Shown: one piece after another, positions 53,481 through 63,713 of the stretch | How the letters are laid out: every line of letters starts with the position of its first letter | Position numbering within the stretch: position 1 is the stretch's first letter | NCBI RefSeq assembly: GCF_003334405.1 | Contig: NZ_QOWM01000004.1 | Strand: one strand, 5' to 3' | Length of the DNA: 64,000 nt | Source of the DNA: Escherichia coli | GTDB lineage: Bacteria > Pseudomonadota > Gammaproteobacteria > Enterobacterales > Enterobacteriaceae | Notes under the pieces: model-generated | What the model saw: only the letters and a program-made list of their open reading frames with translations | The model's database searches: none | Told to the model about the DNA's origin: nothing | Position numbers and translations under genes: made by a program

Positions 53481-54443
<963 letters not shown>

Positions 54444-54449
54444 TTCTTT

Positions 54450-54526
<77 letters not shown>

Positions 54527-54571
54527 ACGCCCGGCGTGCAGCATAAAAATACAACAAACACATAACATAAA

Positions 54572-55669
<1,098 letters not shown>

Positions 55670-55675
55670 AAAAAA

Positions 55676-55697
55676 GCCCGTCCAGTGGCGGACGGGC
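55676..55697 (-). terminator. Intrinsic terminator for the minus-strand ybiJ transcript
   Basis: Hairpin GCCCGTCC-agtggcg-GACGGGC with an 8-nt A-run on the plus strand (T-run on the minus strand) immediately beyond it. Confidence 0.6.
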
Positions 55698-55774
55698 AAA
55701 CAAGGGTAACATAGGATCAATGAGGGTTAGAGCATATGCGTCTGTCGGCAAACAGACAGGGAAATACTTGTGCT

Positions 55775-55895
55775 GGACGTAGCGTAAACGCCTGATCCGT
55801 CCAACGGTTCGGATTTTGTAGGCCTGATAAGACGCGGTAGCGTCGCATCAGGCATCTGTTGCCGGATGCGGCGTAAACGCCTTATCCGTCCTACG
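55775..55895. repeat. REP/BIME cluster between hcxB and ybiJ
   Basis: GTAGGCCTGATAAGACGCGGTAGCGTCGCATCAGGCA and TGCCGGATGCGGCGTAAACGCCTTATCCGTCCTAC inverted REP units. Confidence 0.75.
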
Positions 55896-55897
55896 AA

Positions 55898-56158
55898 TTA
55901 CTTATAAATTACCGCAGTACCGCTTAATTTATTGTTGTTGGTGGCGGAAGTGATGCTGTATCCACTGGCACCGGCTGCCGCGGCTTTCTCAGCCAGTTTC
56001 GCTTCCAGGGCATCGAGGGTGGATGCGCCATCGGCAGAAACCACGCCGATTTTATTCATGTTCTGTGCCTGGGATGCCGTTACCGGTTCCGCCGCGAACA
56101 CGCCAAATGACAGAGTTGAAAGAGCCATAGCAGCAACAACAGTATTGATAGTTTTCAT
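55898..56158 (-). CDS. ybiJ: Small periplasmic DUF1471 (YhcN-family) protein
   Basis: 86-aa ORF; signal peptide (MKTINTVVAAMALSTLSFGVFA); C-terminal GTAVIYK motif shared with mcbA. Confidence 0.88.
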   Translation of the reverse strand: MKTINTVVAAMALSTLSFGVFAAEPVTASQAQNMNKIGVVSADGASTLDALEAKLAEKAAAAGASGYSITSATNNNKLSGTAVIYK

Positions 56159-56422
56159 AATTAATCTCTCGCAGGTGATTTTTGTATAAGTGACGTTGTT
56201 TCGTCGATGTGATGAGTATCACGTTTTTTTACGAGAGATAAAATCGAAGAGAATTGACCGCCTTGTTCAAATAAATTGATTGATATCTAACCTACTGATA
56301 AACCATTTATTTGTTGTACTTATGAACTTGTTTTATACCGCGTGGCAGTCACAGCAGCGTTAAAGGCACGGAATGACACGCAAAATACAAATTATACTCG
56401 CTATGCATCTCGCCAGTTGTAG

Positions 56423-56689
56423 TTAACGTAACTGGCTGTCTTTCGAACCTCTGCGATTATATCCTGTATAAGCTGGTTTTTGTAAATCTTTCTCCTGCTG
56501 ACAATGAATACATAAGCGCACGCCAGGAATGGCTTCCCGACGGGCCTGCGGGATGGGGGCACCGCACTCTTCACATTCATCCAGGCTTTCGCCGCGCGGA
56601 ATTTCACCCCGAGCGCGGGCAATCGCATCTTCAATTGTACTGTTGATCTGTTCGTTGACGGCGTCATCGTTAGCCCAACCGGATGCCAT
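56423..56689 (-). CDS. ybiI: DksA/TraR-type C4 zinc-finger protein
   Basis: 88-aa ORF; CxxC-N17-CxxC zinc finger (CEECGAPIP…CIHCQ) preceded by an acidic helical region. Confidence 0.88.
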   Translation of the reverse strand: MASGWANDDAVNEQINSTIEDAIARARGEIPRGESLDECEECGAPIPQARREAIPGVRLCIHCQQEKDLQKPAYTGYNRRGSKDSQLR

Positions 56690-56762
56690 ATCGACCTCCC
56701 CATATCAATACTTGTACAGTTAAGTGTAGCTAATCCAGGGACGAACTCGGGCAGTTCAAGCA

Positions 56763-57440
56763 TCAGATCTCCGACCATTCCCGCAGCAGATTATGATAAA
56801 GATTAAGCAGCGACAGGATCTCTTCACTTTCGCCGTAGCGGCTTTTCAGCGACTGAATATTGTTGTCCAGTTCAAACAGCATGGCGCGCTTTTTATCATC
56901 GCGGATCATCGACTGGATCCACATAAATGATGCCACTCGTACGCCGCGGGTTACGGGTGTCACGCAATGCAGGCTGCTGGAGGGATACAACACGAGATCG
57001 CCTGCCGGGAGTTTTACCCGATGTTGTCCGAAGGTGTCATTAACGACCAGTTCGCCGCCGTCGTAGCTTTGTGGATCGCTTAAAAACAGCGTGGCAGAAA
57101 GGTCAGTACGCATCCAGCCGTTTTGTGGATGGCTGCGTACTGCGCCATCCACATGGAAACCATAGGTTTCATTGTTCTGATAGCGATTAAACAGCGGCGT
57201 GGAAAGGGTACGCGGCAAGGCCGCGGCAAAGAATAAAGCATGTTGGTTAACCGCGTTCAGCACCTCATTTTGCAGGGCGGCGTATAACGTGCTGCGGGTG
57301 TCGACCTGTTGATTGTTCTTAACTTGCGCACCTTGTGCGCCGGTGGTGACGCGTCCATCCACCCATTCGGCTTGTTCCAGTTGTTCGCGAAAACGAGCGA
57401 CGTCCTGTGGCGATAACACGCCGGGAATGTGGTACATCAT
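56763..57440 (-). CDS. ybiX: PKHD-type Fe(II)/2-oxoglutarate-dependent hydroxylase
   Basis: 225 aa from the internal ATG pair (MMYHIPG); HxD…H iron-binding pattern (HVDG…H); 41 bp downstream of fiu on the same strand. Confidence 0.85.
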
Positions 57441-57481
57441 ACAATTTCTCCAAAAAGTGGGGCCTGCGCCCCACATCTGAA

Positions 57482-59764
57482 TCAGAAATGCATATTGGCT
57501 GTGAGCAAGAAGGTTCTTGGCTCGCCCGGGTGATAACGGTAGCCGCTCTTGTTGATTGAGGCGACGTAATCGGTATCAAACAGGTTGTAAACGTTTAGCT
57601 GGAAGTCGAGATTGCGATTAACTCGATACCCCAGTTTGGCATCGGCGACCCAGTAACCTTCGGTAAACGCTGGCGTTCCCACCGCGCCGTCTGAACCTTT
57701 ATGCATACTGCCGATATAGCGTGCGCCCGCGCCAACAGAGATATCGTCGGTTGCCTGATATTGGCTCCATAAGGTGAAGGCGTGCTCCGGGGTATACGGC
57801 AGCGATGAGGAACCATCCTGGGCAACATCTTTGCCGTTTTTGATGGTTGCTTTTTGCTGGGTATAGCCGCCAATCACCTGCCACGCGGGAGTGATATTCC
57901 CGGCCACGGATATCTCATAGCCTTCGACGCGTTTCTTACCGTATTGCGAGTAAGTTCCGTCATCATTTTGCTCAACTTCATTTTCGATATCAGTGCGGAA
58001 CAGCGCGGCGGTGAGCAACAGACGTTTATCCAGAACCTGCCATTTGGTGCCAATCTCGCTGGTGTTGGCTTTTTGCGGTTTAAAATCGGTGCGGTTGGCA
58101 CTGTTACCGCTGCCAGACTGCGCAAGGGCGAAGTTGTTGCCGCCCGGAGGCTGCTGGGAAACGGCATAGTTAATATAGACATTGCCGTTTTCCGTCAGGT
58201 GATACAGCGCCCCGGCTTTCCAGTTCATCAGATTGCCCGACTTGGCGGTGTCGACGGTGGTGACCGGAGAACCTTTTGCCACACCAGTTGGGCAGGTGAT
58301 GGCACCGCGTCCGCTGCCGCCGCAGGCGGTGGCACTGTCATATTCAGTATGATAATTATCCAGACGGATCCCGCCGTTCAGCTCAAAATCACGGGTGATT
58401 TGCAGCGTATCAAAGGCGTAAATTGCGAAGGTATCCGTCTGACCATTGGCGTTTGCGCCGTTGCGCGTCAGGCCGCCGGGATGAATGCTGCTGTCAGGAT
58501 GATAAATATTTACCGCGGGTAACGTCACCGGATTAACGCCGTAGTTAGTCTGCGTTTCACGGGTAAATTCCACGCCGGTACTGACATCATGACCGATAGA
58601 ACCGGTATAGAACGTCGAGGTCAGGTTGGTCTGGTTGGTGAGAATTTTATTACTCACATCTTTGGTATTCGCCGTGCGTGACCAGGTCCAGCTATTCACA
58701 TCGCTGGTGGGCTGAGTAATATTCGACGCCCCGCCCATAATCGCCGTCATCAGGTAATCCTGCTTTACGCGCGACCAACGGGTAGTATTGCGAATGGTGG
58801 TGTTATCGTTGATGTCGTGCTCAAAACGCATGGTGGCGGTGTCGGTGGTCGAATCGTCGTAATCGGAATCCGTGCCGTAAAAGTTATGAGTATCAACTTT
58901 TCCGGAATGATTCAGGGCCGCCGTTCCCGCAGATGGGGCAGAATAGCCCGGCAAACCGATGGTCGGAATGCCGCCGTCTGGCGTGTTGTGCTGGGTGACA
59001 TGCAGATAATTAAGATACAAACGATTCGCTGTACCAAGGCCAAAAGCGACAGAAGGGGCGACGCCGTAACGCTCATTTTTGACTTTGTCGCGTCCGGCAT
59101 CGTGCGTTTTTTCGCCCATTACATTCAGGCGCACCGCGGTGGTATCACCAATGACCTGATTGACGTCCAGCGTGCCGCGGCGGAACCAGGCGCTGCCAAT
59201 ACTGGCGGAGGCGTCAATGCCGGAATCATTGCGCGGCTGCTTGCTGATCATATTGATCGAGCCTGTCGGTGCGCTGCGCCCGTAGTCGGTGCCGGACGGC
59301 CCTTTAATCACTTCGACCTGCTCGGTATTGAAGGTGTCGCGCGAGACGCTGCCGATATCGCGAATGCCATCAATATAAATACTGTTAGAGGTATCGGCAC
59401 CACGCATATAAATGGCGTCGCCAGTGGTGGAGTTACCGTTCTCACCCGCAAAAAACGCACCCACGCCGGGGACGTTTTTGAGCGCGTCGGTAAGGTTGGT
59501 TGCGCCCTGATCTTTAATCACTTGTTCAGAAATTACCGTCATCGTGCGGGTAGTATCCGCTACCGGACGCGAGAATTTCGGATCGGCAGATTGTTGTGGC
59601 GCATAAAGCGAAGGCGTTGATGCTTCGACAACCAGCGTGTCATCCGCGTTAGTTTGCCCTTCGGCGGCGAGTGCCTGAGCCACAGGCGTGATGCCAATAC
59701 AAAGACCGGCAAAGAACGTGAGCGAATGAAATTGTCTGGCAGGGAAATTGCGATTGTTTTCCAT
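57482..59764 (-). CDS. fiu: TonB-dependent outer-membrane receptor for catecholate siderophores
   Basis: 760-aa ORF; signal peptide, plug domain, 22-strand beta-barrel ending in aromatic residue (…LLTANMHF). Confidence 0.95.
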
Positions 59765-59874
59765 TTTGCAGGTGACTTTTTCTTATATGTTGAAATTTTC
59801 ACTGCCACGAGAAAGCCTCTCTGCGGATGCGATGCCACTGTTAATCCCGTGATAGTGCTCGTGAAAGTGATAAT

Positions 59875-59893
59875 AATTTTGATAAGCATTATC
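59875..59893 (-). promoter_or_regulatory. Fur box in the fiu promoter
   Basis: AATTTTGATAAGCATTATC; the last 13 nt match the Fur consensus GATAATCATTATC with one mismatch; about 110-130 bp upstream of the fiu start. Confidence 0.6.
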
Positions 59894-60028
59894 ACTTGGA
59901 GCGATTTTCTATCACCCATTGCGCGAAAAAGAAATACATTTATTTACATTGAGTTCATATTTGATGTTTTTTGATTACAAAACAGACGAAAACTGCATCC
60001 AGAGGCGAATGCAGTTACGTTGGTGGGG

Positions 60029-60289
60029 TTATTTGTAGATGGTTGCAGTACCGAACATCTGGTCATTTCCGCCTGCGGAATTAATGACATAACCTTTCGC
60101 GCCTTGTTCGCGCGCTTTTTCTGCCAGTTTATCCTCCAGATCGCTTAGGTTTGATGCGCCAGTTGCCGAAACGGTACCGGCGGGCCGTAGCTGACCGCTG
60201 TCCAGGTTACTCATCGGTTGCGCGGCATAAGCCGTGAGAGAGATTCCGCTCAGGACGGTGGCAATCAGTAGTGTGAGGCACTTTTTCAT
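60029..60289 (-). CDS. mcbA: Small periplasmic DUF1471 (YhcN-family) protein McbA
   Basis: 86 aa from the internal ATG (MKKCLTLLIATVLSGISLTAYA signal peptide) with a GAGGATG RBS; C-terminal GTATIYK; paralogue of ybiJ. Confidence 0.85.
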   Translation of the reverse strand: MKKCLTLLIATVLSGISLTAYAAQPMSNLDSGQLRPAGTVSATGASNLSDLEDKLAEKAREQGAKGYVINSAGGNDQMFGTATIYK

Positions 60290-60564
60290 AATGACATCCT
60301 CATAAATACAACGGGTAGTGCCTGATAAGTGTAGGTCGCCTGCGCGATGCAAATGACGCAAAAAATTGACAGAGATGTGCTTATTTTTTGAACGATATAT
60401 TTTTACAAAATAAGACAAATCAATGACATGCATAATGCTGATTTTTATGATGAATTGCCATAAACCATAGCCATGTTAAGGTTTTGGGGAATGATAAACG
60501 CAGCCAGATATTTACCCTGTCGCGTTATGCGGGTATCTTACGCCGCTGCTTAAAGGAGAATGCT

Positions 60565-61491
60565 ATGTCCGCCCAGAAACCGGGGTTGCATCCGCGCAAC
60601 CGTCATCACAGCCGCTACGATCTCGCCACGCTTTGTCAGGTCAATCCTGAACTCAGGCAATTCCTCACGCTTACACCCGCCGGGGAGCAAAGCGTAGACT
60701 TTGCCAATCCGCTGGCGGTGAAGGCGCTCAATAAGGCGTTGCTGGCCCATTTTTACGCCGTAGCGAACTGGGATATCCCCGACGGTTTTCTCTGCCCACC
60801 AGTACCGGGCCGGGCGGATTATATTCATCACCTTGCCGATTTACTGGCAGAAGCAAGCGGAACAATTCCAGCGAATGCCAGCATTCTGGATATCGGCGTT
60901 GGTGCGAACTGTATTTATCCGCTGATTGGCGTACATGAATATGGCTGGCGTTTTACCGGTAGTGAAACCAGCAGCCAGGCGTTAAGCAGTGCGCAGGCGA
61001 TTATCAGTTCTAATCCGGGGCTTAACCGCGCCATTCGTCTGCGTCGGCAAAAAGAGAGTGGGGCGATTTTTAACGGCATCATCCATAAAAACGAGCAATA
61101 CGACGCGACCTTGTGTAACCCGCCATTCCACGATTCCGCCGCTGCGGCACGGGCAGGTAGTGAGCGTAAACGCCGTAACCTGGGGCTGAACAAAGACGAT
61201 GCACTGAACTTTGGCGGCCAGCAACAGGAGTTGTGGTGTGAAGGCGGTGAAGTCACCTTTATCAAAAAGATGATTGAAGAGAGCAAAGGCTTCGCGAAGC
61301 AGGTGATGTGGTTTACATCACTGGTATCTCGTGGTGAAAACTTACCGCCGTTGTATCGTGCCCTGACGGACGTGGGCGCGGTGAAGGTGGTTAAAAAAGA
61401 GATGGCCCAGGGGCAAAAGCAGAGTCGCTTTATTGCCTGGACCTTTATGAACGACGAGCAGCGCCGCCGTTTTGTCAATCGCCAGCGTTAA
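60565..61491 (+). CDS. rlmF: 23S rRNA (adenine-N6)-methyltransferase RlmF
   Basis: 308 aa from the internal ATG with AAAGGAG RBS; SAM motif I ([15 protein letters not shown]) and N6-adenine methyltransferase motif IV NPPF. Confidence 0.9.
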
Positions 61492-63713
61492 AGCGTTGGT
61501 TCCCCCGGCGGTAACGGTTCAGCCGGGGTCGCGCCCGGAGCAGGCAGCACCTGATAAGTCTGCACTGGCGCGCGAACGCCCGCCAGGTCGAAATGTTTTT
61601 TCACCTGGCTGTCGAGGGCAAAGCGTACCGTCCACTGTTTGAGTGGCAGCGTGGTGAACGAAACACGCAGTGTAAACGCGGTATTGCTTAAGCCGACAAT
61701 CCCGGCAAAATTCGGTTCACCAATAATCAGCCCGCGAATTTCTTCGTTTTCCATTAATTCCGCTACCGCATCTTTCAGTGCCTGATTGGCTTTATCAGCA
61801 TCTTCATGGCGATCAACATCATAATTTGCCACCACCGAACCAATGCCGCGGACAAAGTTAGCAAAGGTGGTTATCGAAGACCACGGAATGATGTGATACG
61901 CCCCGGTATCCTGTCGTACGCCCACGGAGCGAATCGACATCCGTTCCACTGTGCCGGTCAACGGCCCGATAGTCACCAAATCTCCAGTGTTCATGCCGTT
62001 TTCAAACTGAATAAATACCCCGGTGATAATATCTTTCACCAGCGTTTGCGAACCAAACGAGATAGCCAGACCTAATGCCCCGGCACCTGCCAGCAATGGC
62101 GCGATATTGACGCCGATTTCCGACAACACAATCATGATGGTGATGGTACTGATAATCACCGCCAGCGCGTTACGAAACAGCGTAAGCAGGGTACGCGTGC
62201 GGGCGCTGGGTAGCGGGCGGCCATGAATATCCGAAGCCAGCCGGTTTTCGATCAAACTGGCGAGCACCGTCCAGCCAACCGCCGAGAAGAAAAGAATGAG
62301 TGCGATACGGATCAGGATATCTACGGTTTTCTGCCCCGCGCCGTTTTGCAGCCAGTTCCAGAAATCGAACAATCCCCATGCGCTCAACAGCAACATTACC
62401 GCCACGCAGACTGTCAGAATACGCGCCGTTTTCAGCGCCGCCGACAGCCAGCCATTCAACCGTTTTTGCAGCTCCGGATAGTTACGCTGAGTATGTGGCG
62501 AGAGAGTGATGGTTTTCGCCAGCCAGCGGGAAAACATACCGGAAACAAACGCTGCGATACCAATAATCGCCAGGCTGCGCACCGTTGCACCCATCATAAA
62601 TTTCAGGCTGTTGCCCGGATCGAACAACGAAAAGAAAAACAGCACGATAAAATAGGCGCTTGCCAGCCAGTGCCACACCAGCGCAAAGGCGCGGATAAAC
62701 AGGCTGAAAAAGGCCAGCGAATGCTCCGCGAAGTTGAGCAAATGCTGGGTAATCTCTTTTTTATTACGAAAGATCAGGTACAACGCCCAGACGGTCATGC
62801 ACAGCATAATGATGACGTTCGCCAGCGCACCTATCTGTACATTCACCTGATTAGAGATAATCGGCACGGCCACAATCAGGCCATAACCTATCAAACTGCT
62901 TAACCAGCTCAGGCGACGACTCCAGTAACGGGCGCTCTCGTCCTGAATCGTGAACGGGCGCAGCTCCGCCACGTTTGGGCAAAAAATCAGGCGTAGTACG
63001 GCTTTGAAAAATTCAATGAGGGCAAAGGCGTTGAGAAACAAACTTTGTTGGAAAGCGATGGTGCGACTGCCTGCATTCAGGTTGTCGCTTAATACCTGGC
63101 CGACAAATAATGTCAGGGCCAGTAACAGCAGGTCGATAATAAACGCCCCGATAATCATCGCCGGAAGCTGCAACCAGTTGCTGCGCTCACGATTTTTTTG
63201 CCGCGCCCACTGACCCATTTTGCGATACAGCGGCAGTGCGCACAGGCGAATCAGCCAGTAAAAACCAAACACTAATACCGCTAACATTGAAAAATGGGTC
63301 AGCGCATTGCTGAAGGTTTGTGGATTAAACGGCTTATGCGGGGAGCCGGTGATATTGCGATAAAGTTGCCCGAAGCGGGCGGAAAGGGCTTCACCATAAT
63401 GGCGGCTGACTTCGGTGACCTTTTGCAGCACGGTTTGCTCTTCGACCAGCGTCGGCGGCACTATTTTTGGTACCGGTTCAGCAGGGGGCGTAGCGGCAAC
63501 GGTGCGCAACTGGTCGATCAACTCTTTACGCGAGGTGTCATTATCCAGCACATCCGCCAGTGCGCCATAGGCCGCTTTTTTTTGTTCGATATCCGGTTCC
63601 GGGGCCGGTTCAGTCGTTGAGTCCGTTGTCGTTGTGGTTGTAACGCCGGGTATGGATACCGCGTGGGCAGGTGCGCCCAGCAGGCAGAAGAGGATGAACA
63701 GGATCCACCGCAT
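61488..63713 (-). CDS. ybiO: MscS-family mechanosensitive channel with extended N-terminal periplasmic and multi-TM region
   Basis: 741 aa from the internal ATG ([18 protein letters not shown] signal peptide) with a GGAGGAG RBS; Thr-rich low-complexity stretch after the signal peptide; C-terminal MscS channel domain. Confidence 0.88.

Follow-up and report, generated by a model that had tools for sequence, protein, structure and literature searches.

Two genes for small periplasmic proteins of the DUF1471 family, ybiJ and mcbA, bracket the iron locus fiu-ybiX in Escherichia coli, and the initial annotation considered this flanking of an iron unit by paralogues to be unexplained. The question raised by the locus is whether the arrangement needs a special cause. 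The window analysed here is a stretch of 64,000 nucleotides of E. coli DNA, in which positions 54000-62000 are an exact match to positions 835767-843767 of E. coli K-12 MG1655. The genes ybiJ, ybiI, ybiX, fiu and mcbA are all annotated on the same strand in MG1655, and the region contains the following features:

55668..55764, minus strand: ZbiJ small RNA, 3' of ybiJ (MG1655 annotation).
55821..55891, minus strand: REP325/naRNA4-type repeat directly 3' of ybiJ (Rfam RF02564, 78.4 bits vs 59.5).
55898..56158, minus strand: ybiJ (b0802), 86-aa DUF1471 periplasmic protein; signal peptide MKTINTVVAAMALSTLSFGVFA, followed by AEP.
56267..56279, minus strand: YhaJ box TCA-N7-TGA in the ybiJ promoter (sequence and PMC5031710).
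56423..56689, minus strand: ybiI, 88-aa DksA/TraR-family C4 zinc-finger protein.
56763..57440, minus strand: ybiX, Fe(II)/2-oxoglutarate (PKHD-type) hydroxylase (NF003972, 519.8 bits, cut-off 399).
57482..59764, minus strand: fiu, TonB-dependent catecholate siderophore receptor (NF007349, 1507.6 bits, cut-off 686).
59863..59893, minus strand: Fur-box-like array 5' of fiu, three overlapping sites, GATAATGCTTATCAAAATTATTATCACTTTC.
59989..60014, minus strand: terminator-like hairpin between mcbA and fiu, CUGCAUUC...GGAUGCAG followed by UUUU.
60029..60289, minus strand: mcbA/ybiM (b0806), 86-aa DUF1471 periplasmic protein; signal peptide MKKCLTLLIATVLSGISLTAYA, followed by AQP.

The open reading frames bear out two genes of 86 codons about 4 kb apart (4131 bp), both on the minus strand. 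The longest frame of mcbA reaches position 60433 (134 aa); the annotated start, that of the 86-aa protein, is preceded at 8 nt by a GAGGA ribosome-binding site and begins a typical signal peptide. The 3' end of ZbiJ is a strong terminator (55676-55697, predicted folding energy of -17.6 kcal/mol); in the literature searched, the name ZbiJ gave unrelated hits only. A repeat search also revealed a REP-like direct repeat (D1) at the REP element 3' of ybiJ.

YbiJ and McbA were aligned by BLASTP without gaps, with 40 identities in 86 residues (47%, E = 1e-22). The mature domain is the most similar part (32/64, 50%), and the resemblance is not limited to the 22-residue signal peptide (8/22). PF07338 (DUF1471) matched residues 34-86 of both proteins (E = 1.2e-17 for YbiJ and 3e-19 for McbA), with positions 1-55 of the 55 in the model covered in each case. 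The paralogy and family membership read from the translations were thus upheld. Each protein was recovered by its own NCBIfam model, YbiJ by the equivalog model NF007611 (173.1 bits) and McbA by the exception-type model NF040473 (174.5 bits), and the cross-model scores (80.6 and 74.3) fell below the cut-off of 110 applying to each model, so YbiJ and McbA constitute distinct orthologue groups. By inspection, both have the signal peptide ascribed to them, with a lysine-containing N-region, a hydrophobic core and a small-residue cleavage motif, VFA/A in YbiJ and AYA/A in McbA. This is in agreement with the Sec signal peptides reported in the literature (PMC4092069; bioRxiv 10.1101/2025.02.11.637708). 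A GFP fusion of YbiJ, which carries a Sec signal, was faintly enriched at the envelope, and the AlphaFold model of the protein has an RcsF-like fold (bioRxiv 10.1101/2025.02.11.637708), whereas McbA is described, in papers citing Zhang 2008, as a periplasmic protein repressed by McbR. As regards the mixed alpha+beta fold exemplified by SrfN, YahO and YdgH, two solved chains designated "putative periplasmic protein" were matched by sequence: 2NOC (E = 9e-5 and 3e-5) and 2MA4 (E = 4e-4 and 3e-4).

ybiJ and mcbA are named members of the DUF1471 (YhcN-BhsA-McbA) family, from which they do not differ: its proteins of ~86-91 aa have a Sec signal peptide and a C-terminal domain of 55 residues with a conserved GTAxIYK end, and the family, tied to stress and biofilm phenotypes, is found only in Enterobacterales, with about ten paralogues per genome and several adjacent pairs (PMC4092069). 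Salmonella has no McbA, and the nearest relative in that genus is YcfR/BhsA (PMC4092069). Our searches gave a similar distribution, with only 436 representatives reaching E <= 1e-3 among 1.84 billion proteins; the named homologues were essentially all from Enterobacterales, and two metagenome-assembled genomes were labelled only "Proteobacteria bacterium". An apparent Bacillales homologue was discarded, as it lies on a 251-bp contig, is 100% identical to residues 1-51 of E. coli YbiJ and looks like contamination. The YbiJ-McbA paralogy and the frequent adjacency of DUF1471 genes have already been published (PMC4092069; bioRxiv 10.1101/2025.02.11.637708).

The genes between the paralogues are, as annotated, ybiI and the Fur-controlled fiu-ybiX. 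The description of ybiI as "DksA-like" holds at the level of the DksA/TraR family (NF008243, 160.5 bits, cut-off 96), but not for DksA itself: the DksA equivalog TIGR02420 gave 20.1 bits against a cut-off of 115.5, through the zinc-finger part only. YbiI lies at the TraR subfamily cut-off (59.5 against 59.7) and is nearer to TraR than it is to DksA. The fiu-ybiX pair is the E. coli version of a self-contained, Fur-regulated two-gene module, consisting of a TonB-dependent transporter and a 2OG/Fe(II) dioxygenase, that is known as piuA-piuC or cciT-cciO and is co-conserved in Proteobacteria (bioRxiv 10.1101/2024.10.16.618771). That module comes without DUF1471 genes, and we found the DUF1471 flanking only in Enterobacteriaceae loci, in which it is not constant. 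In some E. coli strains, fiu is disrupted by IS4.

Motif inspection and the literature together identify mcbA, fiu-ybiX and ybiJ as three units with separate promoters, terminators and regulators. The mcbA hairpin has a predicted folding energy of -12.8 kcal/mol and is kept 3' of mcbA in E. coli, E. albertii and most of the Citrobacter loci examined, with a variant sequence in Enterobacter and Lelliottia. A strict scan of the window with the Fur consensus (<=3 mismatches) yielded nothing near fiu; the Fur-box-like sites, found in a relaxed scan, have 4-5 mismatches to the 19-mer consensus and overlap a sigma-70-like promoter. For ybiI, ybiJ and mcbA, the upstream sequence had no comparable site, with at least 11, 8 and 6 mismatches, respectively. 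The gene fiu belongs to the core Fur regulon (PMC10164565), and the Fur-1 iModulon of the literature includes fiu, ybiX and ybiI; mcbA and ybiJ are absent from its listed members. In the ybiJ promoter, mutations of C120, T112 and T111 in the YhaJ box abolish induction (PMC5031710), and the corresponding positions of the box match here. The literature also places ybiJ, together with the Fur-regulated fhuF, among the top acid-induced genes. The mcbA unit would thus have its own promoter and terminator under repression by McbR, the fiu-ybiX unit would be controlled by Fur, with probable read-through into ybiI, and the ybiJ unit, which has the REP element and ZbiJ at its 3' side, would be YhaJ-activated and acid-induced.

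The comparison covered 29 loci of Enterobacteriaceae that were informative, besides duplicates and fragments. The order and strand of mcbA and ybiJ were constant in the informative loci, with or without fiu-ybiX between them, and mcbA, ybiI and ybiJ followed each other in this order on one strand in Escherichia, Citrobacter, Enterobacter, Lelliottia, Leclercia, Trabulsiella, Pseudescherichia and Pluralibacter. Both mcbA and fiu were present in E. coli and five Citrobacter loci, and mcbA without fiu in 20 loci (E. albertii, Enterobacter, C. amalonaticus and C. werkmanii, for example). Klebsiella michiganensis and Pseudocitrobacter had fiu without mcbA, and Salmonella, Superficieibacter and UBA5654 had neither. 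As all four combinations of mcbA and fiu-ybiX occur, the presence of one is independent of that of the other. Loci lacking fiu-ybiX are among the 26 of the 29 informative loci in which ybiI adjoins ybiJ.

Several of the loci without an intact cassette bear traces of it. In E. albertii, the spacer still contains the mcbA terminator, a 47-nt stretch of fiu 5' coding sequence (79%) and, together with the intergenic region, the final 17 nt of ybiX (89%); in C. werkmanii the 3' end of ybiX directly follows the mcbA terminator. Citrobacter sp. Awk 4, with 6% of fiu and 77% of ybiX left, represents cassette decay in progress. These deletion scars and the decaying locus imply that fiu-ybiX is old at this site and has been lost repeatedly. 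However, no fiu or ybiX coding remnants were detected in the Enterobacter and Lelliottia spacers, so loss and primary absence are indistinguishable in these genera. The base composition of fiu-ybiX (52-55% G+C) is like that of the neighbouring coding regions, and a scan gave no sign of its horizontal transfer. Other cargo was found in the mcbA-ybiI spacer: Pseudescherichia has a cluster of Liv-like ABC transporter, amidohydrolase and LysR genes there, and a metagenome-assembled genome of Leclercia has a recombinase-like gene. One contig with a divergent McbA (56% identity; L050) has the order flavin reductase-mcbA-fiu, and another (L048) has ybiX-ybiI-ybiJ; the other divergent representatives were mostly on short contigs or in non-syntenic contexts (Sodalis). 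No syntenic locus was found outside Enterobacteriaceae sensu stricto among the about 30 loci sampled. The age of fiu-ybiX between the paralogues, and its survival in several genera, leave room for a weak selective benefit of linkage.

We consider it probable that the bracketing is a historical by-product of gene order, which would constitute neither a functional frame nor a mobile-element structure. The older order would have been rlmF-(flavin reductase)-mcbA-fiu-ybiX-ybiI-ybiJ-ybiB. In this scenario, ybiJ and mcbA, two old members of a family restricted to Enterobacterales and encoding small Sec-exported stress and biofilm proteins, would derive from a local duplication in an early ancestor of the Enterobacteriaceae; their relative order and strand have been kept since. 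The pair of outer-membrane transporter and dioxygenase, self-contained and under Fur control, occupies the mcbA-ybiI slot as a dispensable insert, and the loci compared above show its independent deletion in several lineages and the independent loss of mcbA in others. The independent presence and absence of the genes, the scars and the separate regulation reduce what had seemed to need a special cause to an ordinary layout.

Local duplication is the likeliest origin of the pair, although it was not resolved by phylogeny. The proximity of ybiJ and mcbA is unlikely to be due to chance: for ten DUF1471 genes in a genome of 4.64 Mb, only 0.04 same-strand pairs within 4.1 kb are expected. An alternative origin, in which mcbA, derived from a bhsA-like gene or acquired horizontally, came to lie near ybiJ by chance or because the site is prone to insertions, is unlikely, but several observations are in its favour. 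In hhalign comparisons with the YbiJ profile, BhsA (133.9) and McbA (131.9) were about equally close and, in the NCBI models, the BhsA model outscored the other's model for both YbiJ and McbA. Neighbour-joining bootstrap analyses of 61 McbA, YbiJ, BhsA and outgroup sequences recovered each of the three groups as monophyletic and McbA and YbiJ as sisters, with bootstrap values (28% for the full alignment and 43% for the mature part) too low to order the three. The search of 1.84 billion representative proteins for intermediates that could break up the long branches did not settle the branching order either, since the sequences that it yielded form a cloud with 40-55% identity to BhsA and YbiJ alike. 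The McbA group also evolves faster than the YbiJ group (identities among orthologues of 58-98% and 70-98%, respectively), and the mcbA-ybiI slot takes foreign cargo in other genera. Nevertheless, with the McbA profile, YbiJ (131.9) is the nearest paralogue, ahead of BhsA (114.0), the gapless alignment of the E. coli pair extends over 86/86 residues, BhsA being one residue shorter, and the pair is present in at least eight genera. Other adjacent DUF1471 pairs fit expansion by local duplication as well: yjfN-bsmA in E. coli (148 bp apart) and yhcN with a ycfR-like gene in Salmonella are same-strand paralogue pairs from family expansion. Unlike these pairs, mcbA and ybiJ are parted by ybiI, with or without the 3-kb fiu-ybiX or other cargo.

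It is very unlikely that linkage or co-expression was selected because the two periplasmic DUF1471 proteins, with their RcsF-like fold, work with Fiu or in iron or catecholate stress. The mcbA-fiu-ybiX-ybiI-ybiJ order is indeed old (E. coli and several Citrobacter, partly Klebsiella and the L050 lineage), ybiI, between the paralogues, co-varies with the Fur regulon, and ybiJ shares strong acid induction with fhuF. However, mcbA and fiu-ybiX occur independently of each other, and 20 sampled loci keep mcbA and ybiJ without fiu-ybiX. Moreover, the paralogues lie outside the listed Fur-1 iModulon and have no Fur-box-like site, they answer to different regulators (McbR for mcbA and YhaJ for ybiJ), and mcbA ends in its own conserved terminator. 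We regard as highly improbable a further reading, according to which mcbA-ybiI-ybiJ would be an envelope-stress module of two RcsF-fold proteins and a TraR-like RNA-polymerase-binding factor, and the mcbA-ybiI spacer a site at which outer-membrane or transport cargo docks recurrently, fiu-ybiX being the cargo of Escherichia, Citrobacter and Klebsiella, alongside that of Pseudescherichia and Leclercia given above; if this were true, the DUF1471 proteins on either side would sense or buffer what the cargo does to the envelope. The idea that the paralogues, directly oriented around a variably present cassette, are the arms of a composite element and drive its insertion or excision as direct repeats is effectively refuted, because their nucleotide identity (49.8%, 30% at third codon positions, longest common in-register run 9 nt) means that they are not recombination substrates, there is no transposase, integrase or long repeat in 55600-60600 (a search for long direct repeats around fiu-ybiX gave only short chance matches and the REP units), and the base composition is native. 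In addition, the deletions end beyond the mcbA terminator and within fiu and ybiX; none of these endpoints is in the paralogues, both of which survive every deletion.

Earlier work has already described these genes, along with their family, paralogy and regulators, and the modest addition made here is comparative: fiu-ybiX is an ancient, dispensable insert between old DUF1471 paralogues that has been lost repeatedly, leaving recognisable scars. The result cautions against inferring a function from the flanking, and the natural set of strains with and without mcbA and fiu can be used in tests of DUF1471 function. The repeated loss of fiu and its disruption by IS4 fit the view of Fiu, an entry route for cefiderocol, as a possible liability.

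The RefSeq annotation places ybiJ, ybiI, ybiX, fiu and mcbA on a single strand throughout, with hcxB and rlmF, which lie outside the ybiJ-mcbA interval, on the opposite strand. The two outer genes and the small features on the 3' side of ybiJ are as follows.

60029-60289, minus strand: mcbA (b0806), ORF of 86 aa (ORF list)
55898-56158, minus strand: ybiJ (b0802), ORF of 86 aa (ORF list)
55821-55891, minus strand: REP325/naRNA4-type repeat, directly 3' of ybiJ (Rfam RF02564, 78.4 bits)
55771-55806 and 55860-55895: direct repeat, 3' of ybiJ
55736-55795, plus strand: ybiE, 19-codon ORF overlapping ZbiJ
55668-55764, minus strand: ZbiJ, small RNA downstream of ybiJ (MG1655 annotation), ending in a strong terminator (55676-55697)

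Positions 54000-62000 of the window are contained as an exact substring in MG1655 (835767-843767), and the 6-kb region was found at at least 80% in one place in 5417 of 5426 complete E. coli genomes; in strain K-12 this arrangement is already known and annotated. The median number of megablast places per genome for this region was 11, part of which may be explained by the REP325/naRNA4-type repeat. The longest ORF of mcbA has 134 aa (60029-60433, minus strand) and public databases hold McbA versions of 104, 114 and 133/134 aa; the ribosome-binding site and signal peptide agree with the 86-aa start. The 3' region of bhsA, encoding a further member of the family, also carries a small RNA (BhsB), a feature common to two close paralogues, ybiJ and bhsA. 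The siderophore receptor gene fhuE (TonB-dependent) lies about 7.5 kb from bhsA (MG1655 1160000-1176000), a nearness that is probably coincidence.

The description of YbiJ and McbA as DUF1471 paralogues in the initial annotation was borne out. The proteins align with 40/86 identities and no gaps (BLASTP, E = 1e-22), and the similarity is not a signal-peptide artefact, since the mature parts share 32/64 residues (50%) and the signal peptides 8/22. Both match all 55 model positions of Pfam PF07338 (YdgH/BhsA/McbA-like, formerly DUF1471). Each scores above the curated cut-off of its own NCBIfam model and below that of the other's, indicating distinct orthologue groups within one family. MG1655 has ten PF07338 members (rclB, yahO, ybiJ, mcbA, bhsA, ydgH, yhcN, yjfN, bsmA and yjfY), in agreement with Eletsky et al. 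2014 (PMC4092069), and the proteins YbiJ, McbA and BhsA are almost equally distant from one another (44-50% identity). There is no solved structure of YbiJ or McbA, the nearest PDB chains by sequence being 2NOC and 2MA4. The paralogy is already in the literature (PMC4092069; bioRxiv 10.1101/2025.02.11.637708).

In neighbour-joining trees of 61 sequences, McbA, YbiJ and BhsA each formed a clade, and McbA grouped with YbiJ with a bootstrap value of just 28% (full alignment) or 43% (mature part). Profile-profile scores (McbA-YbiJ, 131.9; McbA-BhsA, 114.0; YbiJ-BhsA, 133.9) identify YbiJ as the nearest paralogue of McbA, with YbiJ equally close to BhsA. McbA is the faster-evolving (within-group identity 58-98% versus 70-98% for YbiJ). 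Ten genes in 4.64 Mb would be expected to give 0.04 same-strand pairs within 4.1 kb by chance, and other adjacent family pairs exist: yjfN-bsmA, 148 bp apart, and, in Salmonella, yhcN and a ycfR-like gene (PMC4092069). Hence, on the most economical reading, the pair probably arose in place by local duplication. Such a duplication must be ancient, given 49.8% nucleotide identity, 30% at third codon positions, and a longest common run of 9 nt. The same divergence leaves the copies unable to act as recombination substrates and, as a repeat search found no other long repeats flanking the fiu-ybiX cassette, a mobile-element role for mcbA and ybiJ is unsupported.

Relatives were compared by gene maps and by scanning every ORF with a DUF1471 profile, at 37 loci from a YbiJ scan with one genome per species; Salmonella and Klebsiella were added by context look-up. 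Eight genera (Escherichia, Citrobacter, Enterobacter, Lelliottia, Leclercia, Trabulsiella, Pseudescherichia and Pluralibacter) share a same-strand order in which mcbA lies upstream of ybiJ, with variable content between the two:

fiu-ybiX-ybiI: E. coli and five Citrobacter loci
ybiI only: E. albertii, Enterobacter, Lelliottia, C. amalonaticus, C. werkmanii, C. youngae ATCC 29220 and others
nothing (435-bp spacer): Pluralibacter
Liv-like ABC transporter, allantoate-amidohydrolase-family gene and LysR-type regulator (~7 kb): Pseudescherichia
weak serine-recombinase-like ORF: a Leclercia MAG

Klebsiella michiganensis and Pseudocitrobacter lack mcbA but carry fiu-ybiX-ybiI-ybiJ, and both mcbA and fiu-ybiX are absent from Salmonella, Superficieibacter and UBA5654. 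All four presence combinations thus occur, which speaks against obligatory coupling and leaves a functional link between mcbA/ybiJ and fiu-ybiX unsupported.

From the E. albertii assembly (L008, 5221-5348), ybiO is missing as well; this gene, placed between glnQ and rlmF, encodes a mechanosensitive channel. The rlmF-dinG interval is plastic as a whole: an Enterobacter MAG (L009) has a chaperone-usher fimbrial operon of ~5.6 kb between ybiB and dinG, with a gap of the same size at L012, L028, L032 and L034-L036 (Enterobacter, Lelliottia and one C. amalonaticus); and the presence of hcxB, between ybiJ and ybiB, also varies. A 251-bp contig of an Alkalicoccobacillus porphyridii assembly (L030), 100% identical to E. 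coli ybiJ over residues 1-51, almost certainly reflects contamination.

A hairpin followed by a U-run (-12.8 kcal/mol by folding prediction) closes mcbA, and most of the genera examined conserve it. The E. albertii mcbA-ybiI spacer retains this terminator (95% identity to E. coli), 47 nt of fiu 5' coding sequence (79%), and the last 17 nt of ybiX with the ybiX-ybiI spacer (89%). In C. werkmanii the ybiX 3' end (CTGCACGAATGGTCTGAAATCTGA) stands immediately behind the mcbA terminator, and Citrobacter sp. Awk 4 keeps 6% of fiu and 77% of ybiX. These remnants are deletion scars, indicating that fiu-ybiX is old at this site and was lost repeatedly. One further contig carries flavin reductase-mcbA-fiu (only 56% identity to E. 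coli McbA and 82% to Fiu), and the Klebsiella order is flavin reductase-fiu-ybiX-ybiI-ybiJ; taken together with the scars, this suggests the ancestral order rlmF-(flavin reductase)-mcbA-fiu-ybiX-ybiI-ybiJ-ybiB. The G+C content of fiu-ybiX (52-55%) is the same as that of adjoining coding regions. Insertion of IS4 or IS421 is another route to Fiu loss: it splits fiu in several E. coli strains that do not otherwise differ, e.g. UMNF18 (L047, locus 2983-6703).

Three overlapping Fur-box-like sites lie in the fiu promoter region (59863-59893), and no comparable sites were found upstream of mcbA, ybiI or ybiJ. The Fur-1 iModulon includes fiu, ybiX and ybiI, and the core Fur regulon includes fiu (PMC10164565). 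The ybiI-ybiJ spacer contains TCA-N7-TGA (56267-56279), coinciding exactly with C120, T112 and T111 upstream of the ATG, the mutation of which lowers YhaJ-dependent ybiJ induction (PMC5031710); ybiJ also ranks with the top acid-induced genes. Repression of mcbA by McbR (YncC) was described by Zhang et al. 2008, as cited in PMC4092069. The fiu-ybiX pair corresponds to piuA-piuC/cciT-cciO, a functionally self-contained pair co-conserved across Proteobacteria (bioRxiv 10.1101/2024.10.16.618771). A G+C-rich hairpin and U-run in the 41-bp fiu-ybiX spacer (57457-57474, minus strand; predicted folding energy -19.3 kcal/mol) might attenuate transcription, or partly terminate it, between these co-conserved genes.

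The layout reported in the initial annotation thus stands, and its description as unexplained does not, given the variable spacer content and separate regulation. The locus consists of two ancient neighbouring paralogues on either side of an iron-uptake cassette that is likewise ancient and is dispensable, each unit probably under its own regulation. The bracketing of fiu-ybiX reduces to history.
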